Origin: Eledone cirrhosa
Taxonomy: Eukaryota
Length of the DNA stretch: 64,000 nucleotides
Direction: 5' to 3'
Assembly (NCBI GenBank): GCA_964016885.1
Contig: OZ024742.1
Coordinates: forward strand, 173,352,001 to 173,416,000
Shown here piece after piece: positions 1 to 40,225 of this stretch. The notes under the pieces were generated by a model that was given only the letters and a program-made list of their open reading frames with translations, was not told the DNA's origin and did no database searches. A program made the position numbers and the translations under genes. Each line of letters starts with the position of its first letter. Within the stretch, counting starts at the first letter, position 1.

Positions 1-452
1 TGAATGTATGGTTACATAACCACCGGTGATTTCATCACCCCCAGTGATTTTAGCGTGGCACCATCATGCCGTAGACGAACATAAATATATAGATAAAAAC
101 TTTCAAAAATAAACATAAGTTTCATTGTAATATTTGTTTGTTTGTTTTTTTCCTTTGCCTTTTTCGTGGTAGAGGTGACGGTGGCGGCGGCGGTGGTGGT
201 GAAGTTATTTGGCTGTTGTTTTTTATCCATTTTCTTTATTGACTATAAAATTTCTGATACAAAATTAAATATTAAATAGTGGAGCCCTATGCCATAATGT
301 AAGGCGTTGTCACTTCCTGAGAGGAAAAAAATGATATCTTATGTTCCATTTGTAATAAGAATTATTCTATCACAATTGTTTTAAATATGTAAAAAATCAA
401 AATTTACGGGAGCGATTCCATAAAACTCTATCCACCATGTGCGTATATTCAC
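1..452 (-). mobile_element. 5' UTR of an R4/Dong-like RLE non-LTR retrotransposon (body lies left of the window)
   Basis: Colinear blocks shared with the 5' UTR at 13619-14620: gaatgtatggttacata, cataagtttcattgtaa, ttacgggagcgatt, gtgcgt; ends at the (TAT)n tract as that copy does. Confidence 0.8.
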
Positions 453-477
453 TATTATTATTATTATTATTATTATT
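453..477. repeat. (TAT)n microsatellite, insertion target
   Basis: Perfect TAT repeats between two element 5' ends. Confidence 0.95.
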
Positions 478-690
478 GAATGCCATGGTTGACGGAGGCT
501 CGGCTCTGTAAGGTATAGTAATTTTTAACCGTTAAAACAATTGTAAATTGTTTAAAACTTGAACCAAATTGTTGATAAAGACACCCTCCTCCTCGTGAGA
601 GGGGTCTTTCTGTCCGTTATTTGGCCCTTCGGGGTTAAATAACCAGTTATTGGGGTTTTGTACCCAAAATTTCATTTTAAACAAAAAAAC

Positions 691-2787
691 ATGGCTACGA
701 AAAAGAAATTTCATACGTCACTCCCACTCATTCCGTCTTCTTCTTCCTCAATCATCACTACAGCAGAGAGAAGATTGTCTCTCTCCCTCCCTTCTTTAAA
801 TGTGTCTCTCTCCCTCCCTTCTCTTTCGCAAGCGATGAAAGAAAAGAAAAGTCTCGTGCAAAGCGTGCAAGGTTTCTCCACGACGACGACGACAGCGACG
901 AAACAGGTGTGCGGGAAATACGAAAACCCAGTTCATTCGTCTGACGTCAGGAATAATAGCAGTAGCAGCCGTAATAACAACAGCAACAGTGACAATGAAA
1001 ACAACAGTAGCAGCCGCAACAGCATCACCAGCAGCATAAACAACAACAGCATTAACAGCAGCAACACCAACAACAACCACAGCAACAGCGGCGGAGGCAG
1101 TAGTCGTAGTACCTGCAGCAACAACAAAAGTACCAGCAGCTCTGACGACAACAACAACAGCAGAGAAAAACCAATCTCATTTGCAGGTATTGCGAAAAAC
1201 TTGGAAACAATCCTCATAACAAATGAGGAATTAGAGGAAGCGAAGAAGATGGTGACAAAGAACGGACACCGAGCAATCTGCAAGGCAGCGAAAAATTTTT
1301 TCGAAACCCAAGAGCACTGTACGGTCACGTACCGTACAGTAAGTACAAAATCCCGTAGGGTGGAAAGAGCCACAGAGGCCCAAATACAAAAAGCCTTGGG
1401 GTCTGTGTGGCAGAGGAAAACGCACATCACCCGAGGCAAAAAATACGCCACCGTAGACGTACTTTTTGCCACACCCCAGGAGGCAAAGGCCCAATCAGTA
1501 GTGACACTAAGGAGCGAGGAAATGGTGTTGGTGCCCTCCTACTGCGGGCAAAAAATTGTGAGGGTCAAACTGACCCACGTCCCCCCCGGAATGACCCCTT
1601 CTTGGCTGGCCGCGTCTGTCCTCGTCGGAATCGAGGACAAAACAACTGTACTGCAAGTACAGAAAAAAGTAAGAGAAGATTGGGTCGGCTCCTCCATTGA
1701 GATGCTAATCCAAACCAACCAGGAGTGCATCGAAGCTATCCCGGATGTGATAGACTTCGATAACGGCACTCAACTGCCCATAAGTGTTGAGGGCAAACGC
1801 CCGAAATGCTTTCGCTGTGGATCGAAGACTCACCTCAGGGCCTTCTGCAACGAGAAGACCCTGAGAAAGGAGAAAACCCCCCTCCTTCCGAATCCGGCTC
1901 CACGGCTACCAGCAACAGGACAAGCAGCAACCAGGAACGATAGGTCCGTGGCACCCATACCCACTCCACGGAAATCAAAGACAGCAGCAGCAGTGGAAAT
2001 ATTAACAACAACAACAGCAATACCAAATGCAGCTGCAACAGAGACTCCAGTGCAAACATCACCAACAACAACAAGTGAAAGAGTGGAGCTGGTACCCCTC
2101 CCCGACCTTACAGAATCAGACATGGAGTGTGAGGTGGGAGAGGGATGGCAAAAGGTCGCAAGAAGGCACAAACGCAGAAGCAGCGCATCGTCGCCTTTGA
2201 AAAGGGAGGAAAGAAATGAGAAAAGGGTAAAGTCTACTGCAAAGAGACCCACAGCAGCAACACCACCAACACCATCACCACCCACACCAGCACCACCATC
2301 ACCACCGGCGACAACCCCACCGCCAACAACACCTTCAACACCACCACCACAAGCACCAACATCGCAAACACAACAACAAAACACACACACCCAGCAACAA
2401 CGACAAGAAAATAGCAGAACCACACCCCACCCCCAGAAAAACAAATGCACGGCAATAAACACACACAACAAGAAACTAATGACTTACATAATTGAACACA
2501 CAGACATTTCACAACAGGACTACATAATACCAGCACCAATCAAAACGCCAACTAACATAAGACTGCTAAAAATAGCACAGAAACAATACACAAACATTAA
2601 AACGAAATTCCCCAACGCAGTTGGTGATTTCTGGGACCTAGGAGGAACCATCAATCGAAGAGTATATTCAGACATTCTCTTAGAAGAGCCGACGACCAGC
2701 CGAAGGGACGATTCAACGGTCCCTTCACCAGACGATCAAGTGAAAAGGGATGTAAAAACCATCCCTCCTCTACCAAAAGTACGGTAA
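691..2787 (+). CDS. Tx1-like ORF1 (gag-like nucleic-acid-binding protein)
   Basis: Zinc knuckle CFRCGSKTHLRAFC, N/S-rich and P/T-rich low-complexity tracts, EGWQKVARR motif; first ATG at 691 (ORF track starts at TTG 658). Confidence 0.85.
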   Translation: MATKKKFHTSLPLIPSSSSSIITTAERRLSLSLPSLNVSLSLPSLSQAMKEKKSLVQSVQGFSTTTTTATKQVCGKYENPVHSSDVRNNSSSSRNNNSNSDNENNSSSRNSITSSINNNSINSSNTNNNHSNSGGGSSRSTCSNNKSTSSSDDNNNSREKPISFAGIAKNLETILITNEELEEAKKMVTKNGHRAICKAAKNFFETQEHCTVTYRTVSTKSRRVERATEAQIQKALGSVWQRKTHITRGKKYATVDVLFATPQEAKAQSVVTLRSEEMVLVPSYCGQKIVRVKLTHVPPGMTPSWLAASVLVGIEDKTTVLQVQKKVREDWVGSSIEMLIQTNQECIEAIPDVIDFDNGTQLPISVEGKRPKCFRCGSKTHLRAFCNEKTLRKEKTPLLPNPAPRLPATGQAATRNDRSVAPIPTPRKSKTAAAVEILTTTTAIPNAAATETPVQTSPTTTSERVELVPLPDLTESDMECEVGEGWQKVARRHKRRSSASSPLKREERNEKRVKSTAKRPTAATPPTPSPPTPAPPSPPATTPPPTTPSTPPPQAPTSQTQQQNTHTQQQRQENSRTTPHPQKNKCTAINTHNKKLMTYIIEHTDISQQDYIIPAPIKTPTNIRLLKIAQKQYTNIKTKFPNAVGDFWDLGGTINRRVYSDILLEEPTTSRRDDSTVPSPDDQVKRDVKTIPPLPKVR

Positions 2788-2822
2788 GTGGTCTTTCCCA
2801 TCTTTTCCACTCTATTTTAAAC

Positions 2823-5800
2823 ATGACCTCACTCAGAATAGGCAGCATAAATGCGCGTGGCTTGGGGTCGTCATGGAAGCAGGGTCAGCTGCTCAACGAC
2901 CTCAGGTCACTAAACATAGATGTAGTGGCCATCAGCGAGACCAGAATCTCCGAAGCACGGGCCTTCGCACCGATCTTCGGCGGCTACGATGTGTACGCAT
3001 CTCCCAGCCGTCCTGGATCGGGTGGAGGAGTTGCTGTGCTTTTTCGGAGAGGTTTGGATCTCGCCATACGGGCTATCTTCCTGGACCCAGAGGGTAAGCT
3101 GGTGGTGCTGGACGTGACCAGCGGAGACGGGCAAGCTTTCAGGCTAGTGGCCGTCTATGCCCCGACAGGAGCAGGGCGGCCTGATTTCTTCCGGCGTCTG
3201 GAGACCTTCCTTGGAACGTCCCGCTCTTTAGTGTTAGTGGGCGACTGGAACGGGATCTTAGATGCACGCTGGGACTGTGTGGGATTAGCGGATAGGGGTG
3301 GAGGGTGCAAGAGCCTCACCAACCTGCTCAGGCGTTTTGAACTGTCTGACAGGTACCGATTGGATTTCCCGAATGTGCCAATGTGGACTTGGACAAACCG
3401 CATAGGGTCATCCAGATCATATCTAGATAGAGTATTTTGTAGGGAAATAGATAGGTCTAGCATAGGCTGTCCACAATTCAAGATAGTCAGCTACACGGAC
3501 CACAAATTCGTGACCTGTGTGCTTGACTTAGATAGGCTTCATAGACGAGGACCCGGCTACTGGAAGCTAAACGCGTCCTTACCAGCGCGCAAGGCCTACA
3601 GAGACCGGATTAGCGAACTAGTTAAGCGGGCGTTGACGGGGGCCATCGTCAACAACAAGTGGTGGTTTGCTCTGAAAAGAGCGATTAGAATAGAATCGAT
3701 TAGGTTTAGTAAGGCTTTAGCAATAGAGAAAAATAGAGCAGAGGGAGAACTAGTTAGAAAATTAGACGAGGCGCTTAGCAAAGGCATTGCGACCGACGTG
3801 CTTGCGGCGAAATTGGCCCTTGACCAATTCTTCAATGCAAAGCACGAAGGCTGCGTTGTCAGAGCTAGGGTGCGTGCTCTCAGACACGAGGGGACGAAAG
3901 CCGTTCAATGGGCCAGAGTGGCGGAGGCGCGTCGTGGCAACAAAGCCACGATCCGGTCTTTGGTGGACCACGACGGGCGCATGCTACTCGATCCCGGGCA
4001 AATGTGTGAAGCTTTTCAGCGACACTTCGCTCAGCTGTTCGGGGGAAGTGGGGGGCCGGGTAGAGGGATGGACTTTAGTGTCTACCTCGACGGACTGCCG
4101 CGGCTCTCGGCCACTGAGGCGAAGTGTTGCGAAAAGCCGATAACAGCCGCTGAAGTACGGGAGGCAATGACTGGCTGCACAAGGGGTAAATCGCCTGGTT
4201 TGGATGGTCTGCCCTATGAACTTTACGTACAGATGCCAGACTTGTTCGGAGGCCTATTGGCGGACGTCTACTGCAACTGGCAACAGAACGGGAGAATTCC
4301 CAGTTCTGTGAGCCGAGGAGCGTTGGCACTGCTGAGAAAGGATCCGAACAAGGGGGATAACATAGACAATTTCCGGCCCATAACTCTGCTAAACACAGAG
4401 TTTAAGATTTTGGCCAAGGTGCTAGCAAAGAGGTTGGCGCTTGTCGTTGGTGGTCTGGTGGGAGAGGCGCAGACATGCGCCATTCCCGACATATCCATCC
4501 ACGACAACCTCCACCTCATGCGATACATCGTAGAGAGGGTAGCTAGGGAACCTGGCACGGGTGGGTCCTTGATCAATTTAGATCAGTCGAAAGCTTTCGA
4601 TAGGGTCGACCATCGTTACCTAGCGGCAGTCCTGAGGGCGGCTGGCTTTGGGCCCGTCTTCAGAGGCTGGATCGCTGCCATGCACAGCGACATCTGCTCT
4701 GTGGTGAGAGTGAACGGTCACCTGTCGGAACCGTTCAACATCATGCGCTCGGTCCGCCAAGGATGTCCCCTCTCGTCCCTCTTGTACGTATTGACTCTCG
4801 AGCCATTACTGCACAAACTGGAGACGTTGAGGGGAGTCCCGCGCGAACTAGGATGCGGAAGATCCGTGTCAGCATATGCGGACGATGTCACCGTAGTGGT
4901 GTCGAACGCCAAACACATCGAGGCGATCGGCACTACACTAAGAGAATACGAAGCGGTGACAGGAGCAATGATCAACCAGGAAAAGTCAGTGGGCCTGCAG
5001 CTCGGCACCTGGAGAGGCAGGTCCATGCCGTCCAACAGCGTCGTCGGGCGCTGGACGGACGGACCGGTTAAATTGCTAGGGGTCTGGTTCGGTCCGGACC
5101 TCCAGACGGACAAAAACTGGGACGAGGTGACGAGCAGGGTGGCTTCTCTCACCCAGAAATGGGCGGAGAGGAAGCTATCCCTGAAAGGTCGAGCGGAGGT
5201 GGCTAACGCGTACATCGCGTCTGTCATCTGCTACCGCCTAACCGTCGTACCTTGTCCTAAGCCTCGCCTGACTGCGCTGGAGCGTTTGCTCTTTCGCTTT
5301 TTGTGGAAGGGACGTGCTCCGATGGTCAGGCGGTCCATCTGTTGTCAACACCCGCTACGTGGAGGGCTGGGCATGCCGTGGCTGATGATGCGCAGGCACG
5401 CGCTCAGGCTACGACATCTCCACCTTTTCCTCGACGGTGATCAGGTGTGGTCGCCGTTTGCTAGACGCGTTTTTCCCCAGCTCGTTTCCTTGACGGAGCT
5501 GCAGTCCTGGGTCAAGCGAAGACCGAGAGGGAGCGCCTGGAGACTGGAATGTCTTCAGGCGCTCACAGCCCTCGACCAATCGGGCAATGTGATCGGTGGA
5601 AACTCCACCTCGGCGTTCTATAGAGGATTAGTGGAGGGGAAGAGCGACGACGTACTTGGGGAAACTCTAGGCGTCGACGAAAATCAACTAGCCAATCTCT
5701 TCGGAAGAACTTTCGGGCCAGGGCCTATGGACAACTTCCAGAAATCTCTGGCCTGGCAGTGCTACCGAGGAGCCTTGCCAGTTCGGGATAAACTCTACAG

Positions 5801-6242
5801 GCATGGAGGTGCCGTCAGCCGGGCATGTCCGAGATGCGCGCAGGGCGACGAAACCGTCCTGCACGCACTCGTCCAGTGTCCGAAAATTGCTGACTTGTGG
5901 GTTTATGTCGAACACCTGCTGTCGCGTTTAGGACGGATCCAGCTATCATCTGAGTCTATCGTGAGGATTGCCCCGCCCTCCTCCTTTAGCCGGGAAGGGC
6001 AGGCAGTTTTTATCTGTCTGGTGGCCATGGCGAAAGAGATAGTATGGTGGACACGTTTGAAAGGGCTGAAGACGAGCACTTACCTCTTCGGTGATGCTCT
6101 GATTGACTTTTTCAAATTTCATTTGAAAAGGAAAATCAGAGTAGAGAAGGAAGTGCTCTCTTCCCAGCATTTTGTTGAAAGATGGGTGAGAGAAGCAAGA
6201 ATGGCCCGAGTGAATGGGCCGACTCTGAGTATATATCTGTAA
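2823..6242 (+). CDS. Tx1-like ORF2: AP endonuclease + reverse transcriptase + C-terminal zinc finger
   Basis: APE motifs SINARGL, ISETR, VYAP, GDWN, YLD, TDH; RT motifs KSPGLDG, FRPITLLN, DQSKAFD, VRQGCPLS, YADD; C-terminal CPRC-x8-H-x4-C. Confidence 0.95.
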   Translation: MTSLRIGSINARGLGSSWKQGQLLNDLRSLNIDVVAISETRISEARAFAPIFGGYDVYASPSRPGSGGGVAVLFRRGLDLAIRAIFLDPEGKLVVLDVTSGDGQAFRLVAVYAPTGAGRPDFFRRLETFLGTSRSLVLVGDWNGILDARWDCVGLADRGGGCKSLTNLLRRFELSDRYRLDFPNVPMWTWTNRIGSSRSYLDRVFCREIDRSSIGCPQFKIVSYTDHKFVTCVLDLDRLHRRGPGYWKLNASLPARKAYRDRISELVKRALTGAIVNNKWWFALKRAIRIESIRFSKALAIEKNRAEGELVRKLDEALSKGIATDVLAAKLALDQFFNAKHEGCVVRARVRALRHEGTKAVQWARVAEARRGNKATIRSLVDHDGRMLLDPGQMCEAFQRHFAQLFGGSGGPGRGMDFSVYLDGLPRLSATEAKCCEKPITAAEVREAMTGCTRGKSPGLDGLPYELYVQMPDLFGGLLADVYCNWQQNGRIPSSVSRGALALLRKDPNKGDNIDNFRPITLLNTEFKILAKVLAKRLALVVGGLVGEAQTCAIPDISIHDNLHLMRYIVERVAREPGTGGSLINLDQSKAFDRVDHRYLAAVLRAAGFGPVFRGWIAAMHSDICSVVRVNGHLSEPFNIMRSVRQGCPLSSLLYVLTLEPLLHKLETLRGVPRELGCGRSVSAYADDVTVVVSNAKHIEAIGTTLREYEAVTGAMINQEKSVGLQLGTWRGRSMPSNSVVGRWTDGPVKLLGVWFGPDLQTDKNWDEVTSRVASLTQKWAERKLSLKGRAEVANAYIASVICYRLTVVPCPKPRLTALERLLFRFLWKGRAPMVRRSICCQHPLRGGLGMPWLMMRRHALRLRHLHLFLDGDQVWSPFARRVFPQLVSLTELQSWVKRRPRGSAWRLECLQALTALDQSGNVIGGNSTSAFYRGLVEGKSDDVLGETLGVDENQLANLFGRTFGPGPMDNFQKSLAWQCYRGALPVRDKLYRHGGAVSRACPRCAQGDETVLHALVQCPKIADLWVYVEHLLSRLGRIQLSSESIVRIAPPSSFSREGQAVFICLVAMAKEIVWWTRLKGLKTSTYLFGDALIDFFKFHLKRKIRVEKEVLSSQHFVERWVREARMARVNGPTLSIYL

Positions 6243-6502
6243 ACTAAAGGTGGAAAACTGGGAGAGGGCACTTGCCTTGGTGGTCAGGGTCATTGTGGCT
6301 TTTTACTTGGCTTTCTCCACAAATGTCCCTCCGAAGTCTCCCCCCTATTGGGGAATTTTTCATTGTTATTTTCATTGTTATTTTTGTTACATCCTCTGTT
6401 TTTGTTTTTTTACACGCAGAAATGCCCATTTGTACCGTCCTGCATTGTCCTGCACTGTCCTTAATGTCTACTTTATATAAACCCTTGTGGTTAATAAAGA
6501 AA

Positions 6503-6504
<2 letters not shown>

Positions 6505-6537
<33 letters not shown>

Positions 6538-6549
6538 GTTATTGTTATT
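6505..6549. repeat. (ATT)n microsatellite between two element 3' ends
   Basis: ATT repeats with GTT variants. Confidence 0.95.
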
Positions 6550-9500
6550 CCTTGAATCTCAGTCATTGATGTTGGTTAACTGGAAAGTCCGTTGGATTGA
6601 ATATCAAGCCACTACCTGCAGCCTCAGATATTCAGGACGTATCGGAGGGTTCTTGCCGTTCCAAGCAAGCATGCCTTTTGAAGCGTTCCAAAAAGCGTGA
6701 AGGGGCCGATTTTCTTTAACCATCCCTGGAAACCTTTGGAGATAGTCCCCAGTGCGCCTATGACAATCGGGATCACTTTGACTTCATGGCAGTTCCAAAT
6801 CCTTTTCACCTCCCACTTTAGGTCCTGGTATCGGTCAATTTTCTCCCTCTCCTTCTCTTGCACTCTCGTGTCGAACGGGCAGGCCACATCCACAATCAGG
6901 CACGATCTTTTTTCTTTGTCCACAACCACCAGGTCAGGTCTATTGTGTTCCAGTTTTTTGTCCGTCTGTATCCTAAAATCCCACAGCACCTTCACCTGAT
7001 TGTTCTCCATCACCGCCTCTGGCCTATGCTCATACCATTTCTCAGAATGTGGTAGATTGTTTACTTTGCACAGGTGCCAGTGGATCACCCTGCCCATCAC
7101 ATCGTGTCTCCAGCCCTTATAGTGGGTCTGGGCTAGGTGTTTACACTCGGACACAATGTGAGCCACAGTCTCCTCTCTCTCTCCACAGATCCTGCACAGT
7201 GGGCTAGCCTCCTCCTTGTAGATATGGTGCTTCAACCACTTCGTTTTGAGGGCCTGCTCCTGCGCAGCCATTAGCATTCCTTCTGTAGCCTTTTTGAGGT
7301 CTCCTCTTCTCAACCAGTTCCATGTCTGTGGATCTCTAAATTCAGTTTTCTCAAAGAAGGTACTATGAAGGGATTTTCCCTTAAGGCTGCTCTTCCTCCT
7401 TGATGTTATTTCCTCCTTGGGTATCCCCTGGCCTACTGTCCCCTCCTTCAGTACAGCTCTGAGCATTGGCTCCTTACTATAGGTCACGTATTTGTATAGG
7501 TTGTTTTTCTCCATCTGAACACAGTCCTCTATGCTGATAAGACCTCTTCCACCCTCAGATCTCCTTAGGTAGAGTCTATCGACATCACTCCTCTTGTGGA
7601 ACATGTTGTAGATAGTCAATAGCTTCCTAGTCTTCCTATCCATTTCTTTTTGTTCAGCAACATTCCATCTCAGAATTCCCGCACTGTACCTAATAATAGA
7701 CACAGCTCGGGAATTTACTGCGCTTATGGCATTTCTGCTGTTCAGATGTGACTTCAATACGCTCCTTACTCTCCGAATGTATTCAGTTCTTAACAATTCC
7801 TTCATTTTTTTGTTCTTTATGCCATCAGCCTCCAGAACGCCCAAATACTTGTATCCTTCCTCAGAGTCAATTTCCTTTATCATCTCACCTGTTGGTATCT
7901 GGATCCCGTTACTTCTGCTCAACCTACCCCTCCTCATCACAATGACTCCACATTTACCAATACCAAACTGCATACATATATCACTGCTGAAAATACGGAC
8001 AGTGTCAACAAGCACATCCAACTCCTTCTCACTTTTCCCGAAGAGCTTAAGGTCGTCCATGAAGAGGAGGTGATTGATGGTAAGCTCTCCCCTTCCCAAC
8101 TTGTATCCTGCTCTCACTTTTCGCAGCATAATGGTCAAGGGCATCAGGGCAAGGACAAACAACAGAGGGGACAGGCTATCTCCCTGGAAGATACCTCTCT
8201 TGATCTTCACGCTTCCCAAGGATACTCCAGTTGATGTCAACTCTGTCTCCCAGGACCCCATACTCCTGCCCAGCAACTGTCTGATGTTATCTGCCACCCT
8301 GAAGATCTCCAGGCTTTTGGTGATCCAGGAATGAGGCACCATGTCAAATGCCTTTCTGTAGTCTATCCATCCCATGGCAAGATCAGTGTGTCTCCTCCTG
8401 CAATTCCCCATTACCATCTTATCAATAAGCAACTGGTCCTTTGTACCACGTGACTTCTTTCGGCATCCTTTCTGTTCGTCCGGCAACAAGTTGTTTGTGT
8501 GGAGGTGATGGCAGATTTCCTCAGACACAATGCTCGTCAACAGTTTCCACATTACGGGCAGACATGTGATAGGTCTATAGTTGGTGACATCATTACCCTT
8601 GATTTGGTCTTTCATTATCAGAACTGTGGTACCTTTTGTCAACCACTCTGGCACCTCACCCGACACCAAGCAGTCATTGAACATGGCCGTCAGCTTCGGG
8701 TGGAGGGATGTTAAATGTTTAATCCAATACCCCTGCACACCATCTGGGCCTGGTGATTTCCAGTTGGTTAGTTTTTTGGCTTGCCCCTTAAGAGTTTCAA
8801 CTGTGATACTCAAATCAGTCTGTTGCTGTGCCTGCTCACCGATCTCCCTCTGTACTGTCTCAATCCACCCTGCCTGGGCATTGTGTCTAACATCCCGCTC
8901 CCATATTCCTCTCCAGAATGTTTTAGCTTGTTCCGCCCCAGGGATCAAGTCGGTGCCTCTTTCTTTCCCCTCAAGCTGTCCAAACAGCATCTTCTGGTTG
9001 TTGTCGAACATGCGGTTCTGTTTATACTGACTGACTCTGTTCTCGTATCGCCTGATTTTGGCACTCTTTGCTACAATGCGTTGCTTCAATTCCTCTATGA
9101 TAATATTTAGCTTTTTACTCCTAGTTTTGTATTTTATTTCCAGTCTATTTTTAGTGCCTATGTTTTTTAGTGTCCCATTCAGTAGTGACTCAAGCTTTCC
9201 TATGTCATTTCTCATTTCCCCGATTTGCCCACTCAGTCGCTTCTTCCACCACGGCTCTGCTCTTTCTTGTCTGTTGTTTCCTCTCGCTTTTATACCAAGT
9301 AGTTTCCTCACCGTATTTGCTGTTGCTTTGAGGATATTGTTGCACTGGTGAAGACTCCTCGCCTCAAGGTATGGGATGACTTTGTTTACCTTAGCTGTTG
9401 TTTCTTTTAACTTTTTCCTGTCTACAAATCTTAGGTTCATAGGTCTCCCACTATCATTGTTCAACTCATCTACCACTAAATTTAGGATGTCAACCGAATC

Positions 9501-10063
9501 TTGTCCTAGCCCGTCAGCATTCATCTCCTCAGTGGCCGTATCTCTGTTCCAGGTATTATTTATCTCAGTATTCAGATCATTGTCTGCTTCGGGTGGTTCC
9601 TTCGCTCTCAGGACCTCCTCACCTTCATTTCCCGCCGGCTCGCTTGTCTGGCATACTACACCCGCCATCTCCAAGCCATTCTCTCTGCTCAGTTCCTCCA
9701 GTTCCAGCTCGCTTATCCACCCATTAGTTCTTATTACCCGAGCCTGCCCGGCCAATTTTTGTTCATCTAATTTAAATAAACCAATCTCGTTCCAGATGTT
9801 ATGCATCCGTCTCCTGTAGCCCCTCTCCTTGGGGTTACTTTTCAGGTAGCATTGCATAACAGTTCTATTCAATTCTTTCGTCCAGTTGGTTCTGGCCCCT
9901 TTCCTTCTTCTTCTTCCTCCAACATCAGCAGTATTTCGTTGACAGTCAGGTTCCTGCTGCTGAGCCAGGGGGCACCTGTTGGGTGAGAGTCTGTCACATG
10001 ACGTTCTAGTCTCCATTTCACCGTTATTCGAACTGTTTATGTTCGATATTTAAACACTCTTAT
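6550..10063 (-). mobile_element. R4/Dong-like RLE retrotransposon, copy 1 (intact ORF, 5' UTR truncated)
   Basis: Single ORF; short 3' UTR; near-identical to copy 2 but homology stops about 45 nt upstream of the ATG, at (TAT)n. Confidence 0.9.
6624..10016 (-). CDS. RT + restriction-like endonuclease (R4/Dong-like), 1130 aa
   Basis: N-terminal WTKELNRTVMQCY; RT WKSPGPDG, NYRPITCL, DYRKAFD, GIFQGDSLSP, FMDDLK; CCHC CRICGEREETVAHIVSEC; RHD; RLE RPDLVVVD..IVDV..K..RY. Confidence 0.95.
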   Translation of the reverse strand: METRTSCDRLSPNRCPLAQQQEPDCQRNTADVGGRRRRKGARTNWTKELNRTVMQCYLKSNPKERGYRRRMHNIWNEIGLFKLDEQKLAGQARVIRTNGWISELELEELSRENGLEMAGVVCQTSEPAGNEGEEVLRAKEPPEADNDLNTEINNTWNRDTATEEMNADGLGQDSVDILNLVVDELNNDSGRPMNLRFVDRKKLKETTAKVNKVIPYLEARSLHQCNNILKATANTVRKLLGIKARGNNRQERAEPWWKKRLSGQIGEMRNDIGKLESLLNGTLKNIGTKNRLEIKYKTRSKKLNIIIEELKQRIVAKSAKIRRYENRVSQYKQNRMFDNNQKMLFGQLEGKERGTDLIPGAEQAKTFWRGIWERDVRHNAQAGWIETVQREIGEQAQQQTDLSITVETLKGQAKKLTNWKSPGPDGVQGYWIKHLTSLHPKLTAMFNDCLVSGEVPEWLTKGTTVLIMKDQIKGNDVTNYRPITCLPVMWKLLTSIVSEEICHHLHTNNLLPDEQKGCRKKSRGTKDQLLIDKMVMGNCRRRHTDLAMGWIDYRKAFDMVPHSWITKSLEIFRVADNIRQLLGRSMGSWETELTSTGVSLGSVKIKRGIFQGDSLSPLLFVLALMPLTIMLRKVRAGYKLGRGELTINHLLFMDDLKLFGKSEKELDVLVDTVRIFSSDICMQFGIGKCGVIVMRRGRLSRSNGIQIPTGEMIKEIDSEEGYKYLGVLEADGIKNKKMKELLRTEYIRRVRSVLKSHLNSRNAISAVNSRAVSIIRYSAGILRWNVAEQKEMDRKTRKLLTIYNMFHKRSDVDRLYLRRSEGGRGLISIEDCVQMEKNNLYKYVTYSKEPMLRAVLKEGTVGQGIPKEEITSRRKSSLKGKSLHSTFFEKTEFRDPQTWNWLRRGDLKKATEGMLMAAQEQALKTKWLKHHIYKEEASPLCRICGEREETVAHIVSECKHLAQTHYKGWRHDVMGRVIHWHLCKVNNLPHSEKWYEHRPEAVMENNQVKVLWDFRIQTDKKLEHNRPDLVVVDKEKRSCLIVDVACPFDTRVQEKEREKIDRYQDLKWEVKRIWNCHEVKVIPIVIGALGTISKGFQGWLKKIGPFTLFGTLQKACLLGTARTLRYVLNI

Positions 10064-10094: not shown

Positions 10095-13000
10095 CCTTGA
10101 ATCTCAGTCATTGTTGTTGGTTAACTGGAAAGTCCGTTGGATTGAATATCAAGCCACTACCTGCAGCCTCAGATATTCAGGACGTATCGGAGGGTTCTTG
10201 CTGTTCCAAGCAAGCATGCCTTTTGAAGCGTTCCAAAAAGCGTGAAGGGGCCGATTTTCTTTAACCATCCCTGGAAACCTTTGGAGATAGTCCCCAGTGC
10301 GCCTATGACAATCGGGATCACTTTGACTTCATGGCAGTTCCAAATCCTTTTCACCTCCCACTTTAGGTCCTGGTATCGGTTAATTTTCTCCCTCTCCTTC
10401 TCTTGCACTCTCGTGTCGAACGGGCAGGCCACATCCACAATCAGACACGATCTTTTTTCTTTGTCCACAACCACCAGGTCAGGTCTATTGTGTTCCAGTT
10501 TTTTGTCCGTCTGTATCCTAAAATCCCACAGCACCTTCACCTGATTGTTCTCCATCACCGCCTCTGGCCTATGCTCATACCATTTCTCAGATTGTGGTAA
10601 ATTGTTTACTTTGCACAGGTGCCAGTGGATCACCCTGCCCATCACATCGTGTCTCCAGCCCTTATAGTGGGTCTGGGCTAGGTGTTTACACTCGGACACA
10701 ATGTGAGCCACAGTCTCCTCTCTCTCTCCACAGATCCTGCACAGTGGGCTAGCCTCCTCCGTGTAGATATAGTGCTTCAACCACTTCGTTTTGAGGGCTT
10801 GCTCCTGCGCAGCCATTAGCATTCCTTCTGTAGCCTTTTTGAGGTCTCCTCTTCTCAACCAATTCCATGTCTGTGGATCTCTAAATTCAGTTTTCTCAAA
10901 GAAGGTTCTATGAAGGGATTTTCCCTTAAGGCTGCTCTTCCTCCTTGATGTTATTTCCTCCTTGGACATCCCCTGGCCTACTGTCCCCTCCTTCAGTACA
11001 GTTCTGAGCATTGGCTCCTTACTATAGGTCACGTATTTGTATAGGTTGTTTTTCTCCATCTGAACACAGTCCTCTATGCTGATAAGACCTCTTCCACCCT
11101 CAGATCTCCTTAGGTAGAGTCTATCGACATCACTCCTCTTGTGGAACATGTTGTAGATAGTCAATAGCTTCCTAGTCTTCCTATCCATTTCTTTTTGTTC
11201 AGCAACATTCCATCTCAGAATTCCCGCACTGTACCTAATAATAGACACAGCTCGGGAATTTACTGCGCTTATGGCATTTCTGCTGTTCAGATGTGACTTC
11301 AATACTTCCTTACTCTCCGAATGTATTCAGTTCTTAACAATTCCTTCATTGTTTTGTTCTTTATGCCATCAGCCTCCAGAACTCCCAAATACTTGTATCC
11401 TTCCTCAGAGTCAATTTCCTTTATCATCTCACCTGTTGGTATCTGGATCCCGTTACTTCTGCTCAACCTACCCCTCTTCATCACAATGACTCCACATTTA
11501 CCAATACCAAACTGCATACATATATCACTGCTGAAAATACGGACAGTGTCAACAAGCACATCCAACTCCTTCTCACTTTTCCCGAAGAGCTTAAGATCGT
11601 CCATGAAGAGGAGGTGATTGATGGTAAGCTCTCCCCTTCCCAACTTGTATCCTGTTCTCACTTTTCGCAGCATAATGGTCAAGGGCATCAGGGCAAGGAC
11701 AAACAACAGAGGGGACAGGCTATCTCCCTGGAAGATACCTCTCTTGATCTTCACGCTTCCCAAGGATACTCCAGTTGATGTCAACTCTGTCTCCCAGGAC
11801 CCCATACTCCTGCCTAGCAACTGTCTGATGTTATCTGCCACCCTGAAGATCTCCAGGCTTTTGGTGATCCAGGAATGAGGCACCATGTCAAATGCCTTTC
11901 TGTAGTCTATCCCTCCCATGGCAAGATCAGTGTGTCTCCTCCTGCAATTCCCCATTACCATCTTATCAATAAGTAACTGGTCCTTTGTACCACGTGACTT
12001 CTTTCGGCATCCTTTCTGTTCGTCCGCTAACAAGTTGTTTGTGTGGAGGTGATGGTAGATTTCCTCAGACACAATGCTCGTCAACAGTTTCCACATTACG
12101 GACAGACATGTGATAGGTCTATAGTTGGTAACATCATTACCCTTGATTCGGTCTTTCATTATCAGAACTGTGGTACCTTTTGTCAACCACTCTGGCACCT
12201 CACCCGACACCAAGCAGTCATTGAACATGGCCGACAGCTTCGGGTGGAGGGATGTTAAATGTTTAATCCAATACCCCTGCACACCATCTGGGCCTGGTGA
12301 TTTCCAGTTGGTTAGTTTTTTGGCCTGCCCCTTAAGAGTTTCAACTGTGATACTCAAATCAGTTTGTTGTTGTGCCTGCTCACCGATCTCCCTCTGTACT
12401 GTCTCAATCCACCCTGCCCGGGCATTGTGTCTAACATCCTGCTCCCATATTCCTCTCCAGAATGTTTTAGTTTGCTCCGCCCCAGGGATCAAGTCGTTGC
12501 CTCTTTCTTTCCCCTCAAGCTGTCCAAACAGCATCTTCTGGTTGTTGTCGAACATGCGGTTCAGTTTATACTGACTGACTCTGTTCTCGTATCGCCTGAT
12601 TTTTGCACTCTTTGCTACAATGCGTTGCTTCAGTTTCTCTATGATAATATTTAGCTTTTTCCTCCTAGTTTTGTATTTTATTTCCAGTCTATTTTTAGTG
12701 CCTATGTTTTTTAGTGTCCCATTCAGTAGTGACTAAAGCTTTCCTATGTCATTTCTCATTTCCCCGATTTGCCCACTCAGTGGTTTCTTCCACCACGGCT
12801 CTGCTCTTTCTTGTCTGTTGTTTCCTCTCGCTTTTATACCAAGTAGTTTCCTCACCGTATTTGCTGTTGCTTTGAGGATATTGTTGCACTGGTGAAGGCT
12901 CCTCGCCTCAAGGTATGGGATGACTTTGTTTACCTTAGCTGTTGTTTCTTTTAACTTTTTCCTGTCTACAAATCTTAGGTTCATAGGTCTCCCACTATCA

Positions 13001-13882
13001 TTGTTCAATTCATCTACCACTAAATTTAAGATGTCAACCGAATCTTGTCCTAGCCCGTCAGCTTTCATCTCCTCAGTAGCCGTATCTCTGTTCCAGGTAT
13101 TATTTATCTCAGTATTCAGATCATTGTCTGCTTCGGGTGGTTCCTCCGTTCTCAGGACCTCTTCACCTTCATTTCCCACTGGCTCGCTTGTCTGACATAC
13201 TACACCCGCCATCTCCAAGCCATTCTCTCTGCTCAGTTCCTCCAGTTCCAGCTCGCTTATCCATCCATTAGTTCTTATTACCCGAGCCTGCCCGGCCAAT
13301 TTGTGTTCATCTAATTTAAATAAACCAATCTCGTTCCAGATGTTATGCATCCGTCTCCTGTAGCCGCTCTCCTTGGGGTTACTTTTCAGGTAACATTGCA
13401 TAACAGTTCTATTCAATTCTTTCGTCCAGTTGGTTCTGGCCCCTTTCCTTCTTCTCCTTCCTCCAACATCAGCAGTATTTGTTTGACAGTCAGGTTCCTG
13501 CTGCTGAGCCAGGGGGCACCTGTTGGGTGAGAGTCTGTCACATGACGTTCTAGTCTCCATTTCACCGTTATTCGAACTGTTTATGTTCGATATTTAAACA
13601 CTCTTATCGAGGATTGGCGAATGTATGGTTACATATCCATCTGTGGATCCGCCATTCCACTTGGCCCTTGTGTGGCATTATCACCACGCTGTATACGAAC
13701 ACACGTAAACAAACAAACACACAGGCAGAAAGGGCCCCAAAAATGAATAAGCATAAGTTTCATTGTAACGTAGTGTTCGAATGTCTGACTTAGTTTTTGT
13801 TTTTTAAGTTTTAGTTTCCCCCCCCCTCTTCTCTGTCCGTCCGCCTGCTTCTCTCTTCATTCTTATTTTCTTTACGTTTTGG

Positions 13883-13918
<36 letters not shown>

Positions 13919-14620
13919 TTTTTCTCTGTTTGTTTTTCTCGTTTTTTGCTGTTATTGCTGTGTTGCTTTGGTTTTGTTGTTTGTTTTTTCTTTTTTCTTT
14001 TGAGTCTATCTATATATTTTGATGCCTTCCTCTTTTTTTAGCAGTAGGGATACTATAATGTGGTGGCAGCAGCCACCTGAAAGAAGTGGGAGACTGGCGG
14101 CGGCAGCGATACTGAGACAGTGGTGGTGGTGATGTCGATACCGATGCAGTGGTGGTGGTGATGTGGCCGTATTACTGTAGTGATGGTGCTGTAGCGGTGG
14201 TAGCAGTGAAGGAGTGAAGGGGTGGTGGCGGCGGTGATGGGATAATGGTTGTAATGATGGCCGTAGTGAGCGGTGGTGGTTTAGTGTACACAGGTGATAG
14301 GGTGGGCGGTGTATCTAGTTTCTGGTGTTGGTGAGTTTGGCTTTTCTATATAGTGTAGACAGAGGAGGGGGGGGTTCTTCTTCCATTTATAGCCATTTTC
14401 TTTTTTGGATATACAGTGTACAATACAAAGTTGAATATTTGAATATTTGAGCCTTATAACAATATATTTTGGGTCCGAATTTTTTGGGGCTCAAGCCGGG
14501 TGCTTTACGTAGCATTTGTACTAAGAGTTGTTATTTCACAAATGATTTAAATATGTTAAAAATTCAAAACTTACGGGAGCGATTTCATGACCTCCGTCAC
14601 CTCGTGCGTCTTCTTCCCTA
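10095..14620 (-). mobile_element. R4/Dong-like retrotransposon, copy 2 (full length, about 1.06 kb 5' UTR, ORF disrupted)
   Basis: Near-identical to copy 1 over the ORF and 3' UTR; extends to 14620 where (TAT)n resumes. Confidence 0.9.
10169..13560 (-). pseudogene. Disrupted RT-RLE ORF of copy 2
   Basis: GAG->TAG stop at 12733-12735 and a 1-nt deletion near 11306 (aatacttcc vs aatacgctcc in copy 1) split it into 275, 418 and 377 aa ORFs. Confidence 0.9.
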
Positions 14621-14662: not shown

Positions 14663-14664
<2 letters not shown>

Positions 14665-14674
14665 AATAATAAAC

Positions 14675-14774
14675 ATATTTACACGCACAAAACCGACATC
14701 GTACATTCCTGTACCGTCCTGTGCCGTCTGTAATGTTTTTCTTGATGTCAGCCCTTGTGGCCAATAAAGAAATC
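14675..14774 (+). mobile_element. Severely 5'-truncated Tx1-like element (3' UTR only)
   Basis: Aligns with 6408-6504: tttacacgca, tgtaccgtcctg, taatgt, cccttgtgg, aataaagaaatc, followed by (ATT)n. Confidence 0.85.
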
Positions 14775-14856: not shown

Positions 14857-14857
<1 letters not shown>

Positions 14858-17800
14858 AGTTGCATTTATCTTGCTTTATGTTCATACGAGTTATCACCAA
14901 GTCACAACCAGTGACCTCAAGAGACAACAAGGTCCGCCATGTTCAAGAAAGAACATACATACTCACACATGCATCTTTAGTGTTTAGACTTGTGATGTAC
15001 CTATATTGACAGAATCTTCCTTAGTATATGGGCAGTTCCCATTAGTACTATCTTTTGTATTTCTCCTATACGCGGGTTTCCTGGGATTTGCGATAAGTAA
15101 TCATTAGACCCCTTAGGTATCATTCCCAGAGCGCCTACAACCGCTGGTATTGTTTTAGTTCTCAATTTCCACATTTTTCCAATTTCTATCTCCAGGTCCT
15201 TATACTTGCTCAATTTTTCAAATGTTTTTATAGATACATTCTTGTCTATTGGAACAGACATATCAATTAGCAGGCATACCCTCTTTTTAAAGTCCTTCAA
15301 TATTATATCAGGTCTATTTGCATTTATTTTTCGGTCTGTTTGGATGCTAAAGTTCCACAAGATTGAGATGTGATCTTTTTCAAGTATGGAAGGTGTTTGA
15401 TGCTCCCACCAATTCTTTTGATGGGGCAGGTCAAAATGCTTACACATTATCCAATGTATGTATTGTGCAGCTCTGTCATGCCTGTTTAGGTATTCGGTTG
15501 GAGCTATAGGATTGCACATTGAAATTATATGGTCAATGGTCTCTGGTTGTTTTTTGCATTCACGGCATAATGCGCTGCATCCATTTTTTATTATGTTGGC
15601 TTGGTAATATTTTGTTGGCAGACACTGATCTTGTGCTGATATAATCAGTCCTTCAATCTCCGATTTCAGTCCAGAGGATGCCAACCACTGATGGGTTGAA
15701 GTTTTGTCAACATCAGGATTGTTAGCTCGCTCTGGGTATTTTCCACACAGAGGCTTTTCTTGCCATTTCTTAACCAGTTTCTGTAGCAGTTCTTTCTTTG
15801 CAGTTACTTTTACCTGCTTTGCTTTTTCTGTGTTTTCCATTTCAGCAGTAAATGGGACTTCTGAAATTTGTAGTCCATTATTGTATCTTTGTGCATCTTT
15901 TGTAATGGAATATGATCTTTTGATGCTTTCGTGTTTCAAAACGAGTTTGATCATCCAATCATGTGATTCCCTTAGATATGTAGATAATCCAATTGTTGCA
16001 GTTTTCAACGCAATGTCTAACTGGATTAACCCACGTCCTCCTTCTTTCCTAGGGAGATATATTCTATCTATATCTGCCTTAGGGTGATGCATTCTGTGCA
16101 TGGTTAAGAATTTTCGAATTTTTGTATCGAGCCTACCGATCTCTGTGCTTGACCAGTTGATGACATTGTAACTGTAGGTTACTACTGGTATGGCAAGCGT
16201 GTTTATGGCATCGATCCTATTCCTTGCATTCAATTCCGTTCTTAAGATTGCTCTTAGTCTGCGGTAACATTCCTTCCTTATCCTTTCCCTCATTGTCGAG
16301 TACTTGATTCCGTCTCCTTCACAAACACCTAGATATTTGTAAGTTGTTTCTTGATCAAGTTCTCTTATCACGTTCCCCCGATCAAGATTAATGTCTGAAC
16401 TCTTCAGCAGCTTTCTTCTGGTGAACGTTGCTTTGGCGCATTTATCTAGTCCAAACTCTATTTTAATGCTATCACTGAACTGCTCCAGAGTGGATAATAG
16501 CCCTTGCAATTGTTCATCATTTTTTGCAAATAGTTTCAGATCATCCATGTAGAACAAGTGATTAATGGTTTTGTCATAGACTTTATATCCATGTTTTGTT
16601 TCATTGAGCATTTTACTTAATGGTATAAGTGCGATGCAGAATAAAAGCGGTGATAAAGAGTCACCCTGAACAATTCCACAATTAATATTAACTTCTCCAG
16701 CTTCCAGTGATTTTTTTCCACTATTCAAAAGGAGTGTCGTTTTCCATGTCTTCATACTGAATGACAAAAACCTCCTGACAACGGGGGATATTTTGAAAAT
16801 CTCTAAACATTTTTCAATCCAACTGTGTGGCAAACTATCGAATGCTTTTTTATAATCTATCCAAGCAATCGATAGATTTTTGTGTCTATTATGACAATCT
16901 TCCAGTATCATTTTGTTAACCAGAAGCTGATCCTTACAGCCATATGAGCCTCGTTTACACCCCTTCTGCTCAATGGGAAATAGGTCATTTGTTATCAGGT
17001 GGTCATATGTGTATTCAGTTAGGACTGATGTTAAAATGTTATACATTGTGGTCAAGCAAGTTATCGGTCTGTAATTTTGGGGATTGTTTGTCTCATGATA
17101 CTTCGGAAGCAGGAATGTAATGCTGTTAAATAGCCATGATGGTATCTTTTCTGGCTCCTTAACTATTTCATTGTAAAGTTGGGCTAACAGCTCATGAGAC
17201 TCTGTGAAGGCATTTATCCTAAAGTTTTGTATTTTGTCTTTTCCTGGGGATTTCCATTTGCTGGTTTTTCTTAGAGCCAAGCGCAACTGTTCAACTGTTA
17301 TGTTTTACCATATTTGTTCCTCAAGGTGAGCTGTATCTTTCATTTGTCTGTCTATCCATGGGCATGTATGTTATGAACCTTTTCTCCGGCCCAGATCTTT
17401 TCCCAGAATTCTTGCACTTCCTCCTTGGGTGGTATTGATTTAGCAGTTATTGTTGACTTACCAAGTTTTCTGTAGAAGTTTCTTTGGTTGTTTTTGAACA
17501 TATTATTGTCCTTATAGAATCTAGATCGTTTTTCAAAGCGCCTTATACGAGCAGCTTTGGCCGACACTTTTTGCTTGATTATTTCTATCAGCATGTCTAT
17601 GTCACATGTTGATTTTATACTGTACTTTTTTTTCAATTTTTTCAATTTAGTTTGTTTAACATGTTCACGTACTTTATAGTTTGTTAAAATTTATATGTCA
17701 GATCGGAGAAGGTTTATTTGGCGATTGATGTTCTCTTGCCAATTAGATTTCTTATGGGAATTCCTTTGTTTTCTCATCTTCACTCTACATAAGTGAGTGG

Positions 17801-18815
17801 TGACTTTAGCCGATGCATAACAGAGATGATTTAAATCAGTAATGCTTAGTTTGTTTGTGATGATAATGTGTTTGAGAATTATGTTAGTCTTGTGTATTAT
17901 CTTTTGGTTCTGTTTGGAGTTCTGGATCTTAGGGAGGGTGTCTGGTTGCCCCATGTCAGATTCTTTCATTTTCATCCATTCGATCATAATTTCATCCTTC
18001 AAGTTGGCAAGTTCATTCTCATTCATTTCTTTATCATTTACGATCTCATTATTTTCATTTGGAGTTTCATCTTGAGCATGCACTCCCTCCACTTTTTCGA
18101 TCCTTTCTTTAATTTGTTCTGTTGCCAGTGATTCCGTCCCAACCCTGGGATTCGAAGTGTTACAATTTACCTCGTTTTCACTGACACGTGTTTCATTTTC
18201 CCTTCGCTGACTTTGTGCTAATAGCTTGATCTGATCAATTTCTATATCAGTTAGTAACTTTTTTCTTACAATATTTCTTCGTATATTGGCTAGTTTGTTA
18301 CTGTCAATATAGCCTCTGTTTTCGGGATGTTTCTTTTTCCAGTTAATATATGTCTGTTCTGTATTCGATGTATTTGATGGGTAGTACATGGCAGTGTAGA
18401 AAGCCTCAAGGACTTCTTTATTATCTTCCCTTGACCATTTTTCTCTCTTTTTCTTTGGATTTCTTGGTGGTGAGCATGGAGGGCCAACAGTAGGAGTATT
18501 CCGGTTATGGGAGGTCTCCAGCTCCGAAGTGATGGGAAGGTTAGAACCATTAGCTGATTTTTCGACCCCAGTCTGGTTCCTCTCTGAGGGACGCGGCCCT
18601 TTTTTACCCGGGTGACGGCAGATCCGGTATGAGATTTTATCATTAGACATTTACTTTATTTTGTCGCGTGTTATCCTTATCCGCCAAGGGGTTATCATTT
18701 CGTGTTACCACTTCTAGAACGAGTGTCAACCAAGACTAGCGGGGTCGTTCTCCCCTAGAGACACGGCTATTCCCCGCCGGCCGCCATCCCGGTATTTCTT
18801 GGTCACGGGGTTTTA
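14857..18815 (-). mobile_element. Divergent R4/Dong-like retrotransposon, copy 3 (decayed; 5' boundary uncertain, may reach about 19545)
   Basis: Same domain order as copies 1 and 2; 3' UTR abuts (ATT)n; 19482-19545 resembles the copy-2 5' UTR at 14308-14360. Confidence 0.85.
15001..18650 (-). pseudogene. Frameshifted RT-RLE ORF of copy 3
   Basis: 319 + 97 + 761 aa pieces: WSREDNKEVLEAFY, WKSPGKD, DYKKAFD, QGDSLSP, YMDDLK, CRECKKQPETIDHIISMC, RHD, RPDIILKD. Confidence 0.9.
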
Positions 18816-18890
18816 TTTATTTATTTTTTATTGTTATTATCATGAGTGGTTCCTTAATGTGAGCATTGCGTGGCTTAAGAATGAAATTAT

Positions 18891-18942
18891 TAATAATTGT
18901 CTCCACTCCAGGCACAAGGCCAGCAATCACCCAGTGCATTAC
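18891..18942 (-). mobile_element. 3' tail fragment of the tRNA-derived SINE
   Basis: taataattgtctccactccaggcacaaggccagcaatcacccagtgcattac matches the SINE tail at 23500-23551. Confidence 0.75.
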
Positions 18943-20068
18943 AATAATATAATATACTTTTTGCTGAAGTTGCCTGTTATTGTTGTTGGCTATGTCGGTG
19001 GTGGTGCCGGGGCTTTTTATATTGTTGGTGAGGAAGGGGTGAGCCAGCAGTCCCATAGTTGTTGATGTTGACGTTTGGCCGGTGGCCAGGTCACTAAGTG
19101 AATCTATTTATATCTTTTGCTAGCCTCTCCCTTGTCTAGTGATACCGCCACCTTCCCCTTTCTCTCTCAAGTTAACAGGGGAATAGTGGTGGTAGCAATG
19201 AAGGAGTGGTGGCGGCGGTGATGGGATAGTGGAAGCAATGATGGATGGAGTGGTGGCGGCGGTGGCGTTGTCGTTACTGAGTTTTGTGATATGTAGTATA
19301 TGAGTTTGTGTTCGTATGTTTTATATATATTGTGTTGACATATTCCCGTAAAATTGGAATTAAACATTTTTTTAAAACTTGAGACAATAATAATAGTAAT
19401 TATTATTATGATGCTGGGATTGGTGGTGGTGGTGGTGAAATTGCCGTTATCTGGCTGTTATATTTAGTGTGTTGGGGTAGGTGGTGTATCAAGTTTCTGG
19501 TGTTGGTGAAATTGCTGTTATTTGGCTGTTCTATATAGTGTTGACGATAGCTAATACGCTTGAAACTAGTACAGCGTTCCTTTGTCAGTGTTGAACTAAC
19601 GAGCAACGACGGTTGCTCGACACTACGGCTTGATACGGGATGTTTGTTTACAAACACACCGAGCATTATAATAAATGTTCGGTGAATCCATACTTACATT
19701 TATATATATATGTGTGCATGTATGTATATATATATACATACTACTGTACGTCTGTTACAAATATGTATGTACGTCTACATACTTATATTTAAGTAACAGT
19801 CGTACTAAGAGTGGGAAATTAAATTTCGTTTGTTTTTTCCCGTTTATATATATATATAAACCTAGCGTGGAAGTTGTTTGTTATATGTGATGTATATTGT
19901 ATGCTATACGTTATGCGTTATGTGTTACATTCGATGTCCACGTTATGGTCCAGGTCAGTCAAAATCTTTTCCTGAGTTCAGTTTTTTTCGTTGCTATGGC
20001 AATGCGGCTGACTGTCGGTCGCTATATTTGACTTGCAAAGCTCTCTAAACGTATTGTTATGACTCTGG

Positions 20069-39753: not shown

Positions 39754-40225
39754 TTTAAAAATGTAAAAGTTGTGGGTCCTAATGTTTTGAATGGAGAGTC
39801 CCATAAGGATTGTTCTAAAATGAAACAAACCATCATCAAAATATCGTCAATTCGAGACTGCTGCAAGATTAGGCCCTTGCCGCGAAAATTAACACTTAAT
39901 ATAGTGAAACAAGTTAAAACAACAAGTGTTCTTTTAACTTTGAAAGAGCAACACATTTTTTTTTGTATCAATATGGCTTATGAAAGTTTTAAAAATGTAA
40001 AAGTTGTAGGTCCTAATGGTTTGAATGGAAAGACCCATAAGGATTGTTCTAAGAATAAATAAACCATCATCAAAATCTCGTCAATTCGAGACTGCTGCGA
40101 GATTAGGCCCTTACAGCGAAAATTAACACTTAATATAGTGAAACAAGTTAAAACAACAAGTGTTTTTTTAACTTTGAAAGTGAAACAAATTTTTTTTTTT
40201 CTGTATCAACATGGCTTATGAAAGT
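39754..40225. repeat. Tandem duplication, two units of about 234 bp
   Basis: tttaaaaatgtaaaagttgt...atggcttatgaaagt repeated twice with scattered differences. Confidence 0.9.

Follow-up and report, generated by a model that had tools for sequence, protein, structure and literature searches.

The 5' leader of two Dong/R4 retrotransposon families in Eledone cirrhosa is homologous to the 5' UTR of Tx1-type elements

Elements at the locus

The window, by which we mean the whole 64,000-nt stretch that was analysed, carries in its first 19.5 kb one Tx1-type element on the forward strand (478-6504) and RLE elements that all lie on the reverse strand. The features are listed below.

1-227, reverse: remainder of the Dong copy 0 leader, with an internal deletion; its ORF lies beyond the left edge of the window
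228-452, reverse: Dong copy 0 (Dong A, subfamily D0), Tx1-type module, with the donor (GTAAAT) at 407, an AG that ends at 234, and the leader ATG at 230
453-477, no strand: (ATT/AAT)n target tract separating the head-to-head Dong copy 0 and Tx1
478-693, forward: shared leader module, comprising the Tx1-a 5' UTR and the ORF1 ATG (691), with donor-like GTs (508 and 513), an AG that ends at 580, hairpins, and an A-run that precedes the ATG
691-2787, forward: Tx1 ORF1, with an N-terminus of low complexity and a CCHC knuckle
2823-6242, forward: Tx1 ORF2, with APE endonuclease, RT, and zinc finger
to about 6504, forward: Tx1 3' UTR, followed by (ATT)n
6550-10059, reverse: tandem Dong A copy that has lost its leader; its open frame of 1141 aa carries RT, CCHC, and RLE-type motifs
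10095-13606, reverse: Dong copy 2, Dong A ORF (one stop, one frameshift) and 3' UTR
13607-14393, reverse: remainder of the D2 leader, consisting of C/A-rich low complexity, an A-tract, and an ORF-proximal segment
14394-14619, reverse: Dong copy 2 (Dong A, subfamily D2), Tx1-type module, with the donor GTAAGT at 14574, one AG that ends at 14503, a second, ATG-proximal AG that ends at 14400, and the leader ATG at 14396
14857-19545, reverse: Dong B copy; 18650-19545 is the downstream portion of the same leader type, and the 5' module is missing in this copy

The leader of copy 0 (window 1-230) has lost about 550 nt, and owing to this loss a 72-codon frame starts at its leader ATG. A short 3'-end fragment of another Tx1 family (14664-14774) is flanked by two ATT tracts and is 78% like the 3' end at 6409-6549. 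A cassette-like antisense stretch at 19335-19385 lies inside the Dong B leader and is put down to chance. Further along the window are a fragment of a PIF1-like helicase, probably a Helitron remnant (35632-37143, reverse), and a 234-nt unit in two tandem copies that are 91% alike (39754-40225). An Rfam search of window positions 1-21000 returned nine weak matches, every one far under the gathering threshold.

The Tx1 element has two ORFs, the second of which combines an N-terminal APE, an RT, and a C-terminal zinc finger, the architecture of the L1/Tx1 group. The best solved relative of this protein is human L1 ORF2p (E 9e-53, match from residue 5). Its putative assignment to the Tx1 rather than the L1 clade rests on target specificity, with 12 of 12 loci located behind ATT tracts. 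The Dong elements have the single ORF of R4/Dong, encoding an RT, a CCHC motif, and a C-terminal PD-(D/E)xK-type endonuclease, and lack an APE; the CCHC and RLE endonuclease motifs were read from the sequence. The Dong protein is closer to R2 than to L1, and RT identity between the Tx1-type element and Dong is about 24%. AAT tracts precede 30 of 30 D2 loci and 23 of 30 D0 loci, consistent with the TAA/AAT target of R4/Dong. Dong-R4 and L1-Tx1 are described as recently active elements in Octopus vulgaris (PMC13282606), and an octopus Dong with a full ORF is mentioned in passages that do not describe its leader (PMC9115989).

A common leader from the 5' end to the ATG

An earlier note on this DNA had described a colinear cassette of exact 9-, 10-, and 13-nt blocks within about 80 nt of the 5' ends of Tx1, Dong copy 0, and Dong copy 2. 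The quoted blocks are present at all three ends (Tx1 forward from 478, copy 0 reverse from 452, copy 2 reverse from 14619), but they are divided between two Dong subfamilies, the 9- and 10-mers being common to Tx1 and D2 and the 13-mer to Tx1 and D0. The GTAA donor block is likewise GTAAGT in D2 but GTAAAT in copy 0. The blocks do lie within the first 80 nt, but the homology is not confined there and continues to an ATG at about +215 to +225, so that it takes in the entire 213-nt Tx1 5' UTR, as far as the ORF1 ATG, and the initial ~225 nt of the ~1-kb leaders of Dong/R4 A and B. Between the donor-like GT and the ATG, the leaders of Tx1 families b, c, e, and f and of Dong align over ~190 nt nearly without gaps, and the donor, a T-rich run, TTAAA, a fixed AAG, a hairpin region, and an A-run with ATGG fall into register. 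At one corresponding stretch Tx1-e reads TCGCTCCCAGTAAGT and Dong reads TCGCTCCCGTAAGT.

These heads are fixed features of whole families. In searches of the 3.0-Gb genome the best 40 candidates were scored for each head, giving at least 40 copies each: 40 of 40 were 100% identical to the Tx1 5' 243 nt, 40 of 40 were 100% identical to the D2 5' 241 nt, and 40 of 40 were 90-100% identical to the D0 head. When the sequence downstream of the matches was classified, each head remained with its own element, the first ORF being Tx1 ORF1 at 12 of 12 Tx1 loci and a Dong ORF at 30 of 30 D2 loci and 29 of 30 D0 loci. A local inverted duplication, which the earlier note had considered, is ruled out by the family-wide heads and the consistent downstream ORFs. 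A separate SINE or MITE in place of the 5' segments is ruled out as well, since the Dong ORF follows them.

The pairwise alignments were compared with 3000 shuffles each, dinucleotide or local-window, under 5/-4 or BLASTN-like 2/-3 scoring. Over the first 90 nt, the 5/-4 score was reached by 0, 0, and 2 dinucleotide shuffles and by 5, 22, and 5 local-window shuffles, and the 2/-3 score by 35, 12, and 3 of 3000. Over 250 nt, it was reached by 0 of 3000 shuffles with 5/-4, but D2 with 2/-3 was matched by 480 of 3000 and is not significant. The pairwise likeness on which the earlier note relied is thus a real signal, but a moderate one that depends on scoring; the strong evidence comes from a profile.

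The 5' ends of six further Tx1-like families (b-g) were taken from fetched flanks; their ORF1 pieces are about 28-59% identical to that of the window's family, Tx1-a. A profile built from the leaders of Tx1 b, c, e, and f only was run on 1.14 Mb (204 sequences). At E<0.01 it matched 34 of 34 D0 leaders (best 2e-14), 37 of 37 D2 leaders (best 6e-5), 5 of 8 D3, and 2 of 3 DB, although these matches are AT-rich copies of a few families with high bias scores and are therefore not independent. The best matches span model positions 28-29 to 220-224, and a reversed decoy database gave no match at E<=10. Ten matches were unlabelled, of which one is a truncated b copy, four are antisense to a palindrome in c, and five have E>=0.14. 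The same profile recognised just 1 of 17 Tx1-a matches at E<0.01. When each family was left out of the model in turn, all 7 models recognised the one D0 leader included, at 17-47 bits, and the left-out Tx1-a scored 18.5; D2 (2.7-22 bits) and DB (-1.4 to 15.6 bits) varied with the model, and Tx1-d and Tx1-g were not recovered when left out. By these scores the Dong head belongs to the Tx1-leader group no less than the true members do.

The module is common to at least five diverged Tx1 families, and since a profile from four other families finds the Dong leaders, it is an old Tx1 feature and not a private swap between two neighbours. Over the whole leader, D0 is 50-54% identical to Tx1 e, f, and c and 45% identical to the window's family. 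Only in the 45 nt that follow the donor is Tx1-a the best match, and there it is so for 4 of 4 Dong types (p 0.001-0.005). The segment before the donor is weak: its 9-mer has p 0.035 before correction for 44 comparisons and is missing in D0, D3, and DB.

An independent origin of the likeness would require that both clades, under the same host machinery, separately evolved an AT-rich leader with a U1 site near the promoter, an acceptor, and an ATG in an A-rich context. Dong G gives this idea some substance, because its unrelated-looking leader carries GTAAGT at +54 and, some 210 nt into the second module, an ATGG, and pairwise significance does fall with stringent scoring. However, the near gap-free alignment of ~190 nt, profile E-values down to 2e-14 with a clean decoy, and the failure of the Dong G modules to score despite their similar make-up all argue against convergence, which we regard as improbable.

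Direction of transfer

In Tx1 the leader ATG starts ORF1. In Dong it lies ~800 nt ahead of the real Dong ORF and opens frames of 14-72 codons that vary between copies. Tx1-leader profiles did not detect the module in Dong E (9 5' ends) or Dong G (25 loci; best E 0.23). The short, unstable Dong frames and the two Dong families without the module make capture by Dong most likely, and a Tx1-to-Dong direction is the likely one. The exchange of a leader between clades proposed in the earlier note is accordingly supported, but a special tie to the window's Tx1 family is not, because at least five families carry the module and D0 is nearer to e, f, and c.

The two Dong families that lack the module differ in other respects. 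Dong E (L184-L203) is R4-like, with an RT 34-38% identical to those of other Dongs; it resides in CATA tracts and has a fixed 5' start, CAGTCAACGCG, and its own short UTR. Dong G has an RT 58% identical to that of Dong B and a different, long leader. In four loci (L209, L213, L227, and L228) the Dong G leaders exceed 1.5 kb and contain a tandem pair of ~200-nt modules with an ATT remnant at their junction; the GTAAGT is in the first and ATAAGT in the second, and the two modules are interrelated (z 14) and hardly related to Tx1 or Dong A/B leaders. An internal AAT tract of Dong leaders often contains a common SINE-like repeat (L044, L056, and L205-L208). Among the Tx1-like heads, one family (L109:4690-4950) lies behind a CTTT-type rather than an ATT tract, and its ORF1 is 29% identical to that of the window.

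Tx1 could instead have taken the module from Dong, or both could have taken it from the first exon and intron of a host gene. This would fit the closest Tx1 match to a Dong leader being only 54%; none of the Tx1 families examined, and thus no candidate donor, is more than 55% like a Dong leader. It would also fit the missing ORF1 remnant behind the Dong ATG, where D0, D2, D3, and DB all gave z<2 and the likeness seen was compositional only. On the other hand, Tx1 leaders are far more diverse (39-55% between families) than Dong leaders (61-84% between subfamilies), and the module is in register with an ORF1 in Tx1 only and missing from Dong E and G. We consider a reverse transfer or a third source rather unlikely, if slightly more plausible than convergence, and favour capture from Tx1.

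Within Dong, the history of the 5' region differs from that of the ORF. The leaders of D2 and B are 84% alike and their RTs 47%, whereas the leaders of D2 and D0 are 68% alike and their RTs 92%. The simplest history has a single capture from Tx1 and then a swap between Dong A and B; which of the two had the leader first does not emerge from the weakly resolved RT tree (56 and 77).

Bombyx Dong and Ascaris R4 begin with HDV-like ribozymes (PMC3774820). An HDV-like fold was searched for with our own descriptor, which had no positive control, and gave no match in six Dong regions including Dong E, and the Rfam search of window positions 1-21000 gave none either; six relaxed descriptor matches in Tx1-a are put down to chance. 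The ORF-proximal segment of Dong B folds no better than its shuffles (z 0.87).

Genomic copies joined at the splice donor

A genome-wide pattern search for departures from the GT at the D2/B donor found 4 Dong copies, against 1508 copies of one leader motif with the GT. All four rejoin 3 or 8 nt before the leader ATG and have B-type leaders, and three are followed by a B ORF. In two of them (L231 and L232) precisely the GT..AG segment, 168 nt long in most relatives, is missing, the deletion pattern of a SpIRE. The other two, a tandem pair (L229/L230), rejoin 5 nt before the AG, within the A-run, where none of 29 close relatives has an AG. Among these relatives the donor motif is present in 26, with GT in 26 of 26 and GTAAGT in 24, and an AG lies three nt before the ATG in 28. 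Each of three joined copies (L230, L231, and L232) is 96.1-99.0% identical to unspliced copies, a closer match in every case than the 93.9-96.9% found among the three, so three independent events are represented. The exactness of the 5' side is inherent in the search pattern; at the two control positions tried, 5 nt upstream and downstream, there were 0 and 2 matches (a small change and a small duplication) and no long deletion. A wider joint pattern returned the same four copies and no others.

The same B-type donor joint is carried by a contig of run X4, which is of unrecorded kind and may be DNA. In other contigs of unrecorded kind there were two non-GT-AG skips in D2 and no joint on Tx1. 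Five pattern searches in Tx1 a, b, c, and e, whose patterns have blind spots, gave 21 matches and no spliced Tx1 copy, and none was found for D2-type leaders. A short-intron joint (~66-72 nt) gave no D0 match and did not appear with the general patterns, which miss joints that begin with G or have T second. The D0/D3 joint pattern had two matches, one a 1-nt deletion and one a long join of ambiguous type. At L245:1460-1760, a D0-type first exon runs from the donor straight into the ORF-proximal part of the Dong B leader, and the join lies ~9 nt past an acceptor-like TTAAG; this is possibly an A/B swap intermediate or a distal splice. Seven of 10 Tx1-a variant matches (L234-L242) have a common 1-nt deletion that creates a perfect GTAAGT donor.

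The GTAAGT donor thus appears to be used in Dong, judging from the joints themselves, and a spliceosomal origin of the joined copies is the reading we favour. The suggestion in the earlier note that GTAAG is a splice donor is supported for Dong by these four copies, but finds no counterpart among the Tx1 matches.

Even with a captured leader, the joined copies could have formed when the RT skipped from the A-run to the end of the 5' hairpin, with GTAAGT kept as a DNA promoter element comparable to the RUNX3 site of human L1. One of the three events is not at an AG, the 21 Tx1 matches include no spliced copy, and there is a precedent in L1 (PMC5860796). Yet two independent joints are exactly GT-AG without microhomology, and the two control positions showed no long deletion. 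We consider this account unlikely, though it is the strongest of the competing ones, and retain rare splicing as the explanation of the joints.

The Sm-binding consensus is RAU4-6GR. The earlier note had also raised, as a speculative alternative, a splicing-related leader, from the GTAAG followed by an AU5 run that resembles an Sm site. The cassette would then be a unit like a spliced-leader RNA that acts in trans; the Tx1-a donor does lie inside a predicted stem. However, the run behind the donor ends in AAC or AC and not in GR, Tx1 b, c, and e have not conserved it, Rfam gave no match, and the observed joints are in cis. Trans-splicing is therefore very improbable.

A model for the Dong A/B head

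Taken together, these data make it probable that the head of Dong A and B is a captured Tx1 leader, a candidate promoter, that later moved between A and B and of which spliced copies were rarely retrotransposed. In this model, the Dong reverse transcriptase, while copying Dong RNA, would have jumped at the shared AAT/ATT tract to the 5' portion of a Tx1 RNA; alternatively, a Tx1 head may have landed upstream of a Dong. The captured piece would have extended at least to the ORF1 ATG, now vestigial, and would have replaced a ribozyme or co-transcription start of the Bombyx Dong/Ascaris R4 type before the leader moved between Dong A and Dong B. Unspliced full-length RNA would normally be copied, and RNA spliced from the donor to the ATG-proximal AG would be copied only rarely, giving rise to the shortened copies.

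The module is most likely the internal promoter of Tx1 together with a first exon and intron, which Dong would have acquired by a template switch at shared arrays, by analogy with mouse L1 (PMC3600994) and L1 chimeras (10.1101/2025.02.02.635956); its promoter role is putative. U1 binding aids transcription. The donor may be retained for such binding or as an overlapping DNA element, as described for human L1 (PMC5860796).

A broader reading is possible but more doubtful. It holds that acquisition of a promoter-and-splice module by an RLE element from an APE element with the same microsatellite target was a change of lifestyle, that the tandem Dong G modules record a second, older capture, that arrays at shared targets may serve as sites where regulatory heads are exchanged across the deepest LINE split, and that the U1-binding donor would drive or protect the transcript and yield spliced copies as dead ends.

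Comparison with known retrotransposons

Promoter replacement is called frequent in LINEs (PMC2881922), and 11 replacements of the 5' UTR and promoter are described for mouse L1 (PMC3600994). Mammalian L1 and Dong are alike in that a lineage acquires a 5' end which then passes between families, plausibly by template switching (PMC3600994, PMC2881922). The exchanges described there are within L1 or from unknown sources, whereas here an APE element with two ORFs is the likely donor and an RLE element with a single ORF the recipient. Human L1 SpIREs resemble the joined Dong copies in having a conserved donor near the 5' end and rare genomic copies that miss a segment within the UTR (PMC5860796). 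The Dong case differs in that the element is of the RLE type, the module is borrowed, 4 of ~1500 copies are affected, and one event is non-canonical.

Bombyx Dong and Ascaris R4 share the RLE-type protein with the elements described here, and Dong the TAA-repeat target (PMC3774820). They have a self-cleaving HDV-like ribozyme at the 5' end, in contrast to the Tx1-type leader ~1 kb before the ORF in Dong A and B, where a ribozyme was not detected. Chimeras of L1 with other RNAs, and co-option of their promoters, have been described, in which foreign 5' RNA is joined in sense to the LINE body via ligation, splicing, or a template switch (10.1101/2025.02.02.635956). Most of those chimeras are individual insertions that involve cellular or Alu RNA, whereas the one described here gave rise to families with more than 1000 copies. 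The literature covered, which did not include Repbase reports and most subscription papers, yielded no description of an APE-element leader on an RLE element.

The transcription of RLE (R2-type) elements outside rDNA is poorly understood, and the sources of new LINE promoters are mostly unknown. Here the likely source of the new LINE head is a different LINE clade that inserts at the same target. Because these families are young and abundant, with at least 40 identical copies each and 1508 copies of one leader motif, the start site, the promoter, and the donor are directly testable. Repeat libraries of octopods may mislabel Dong heads as Tx1.
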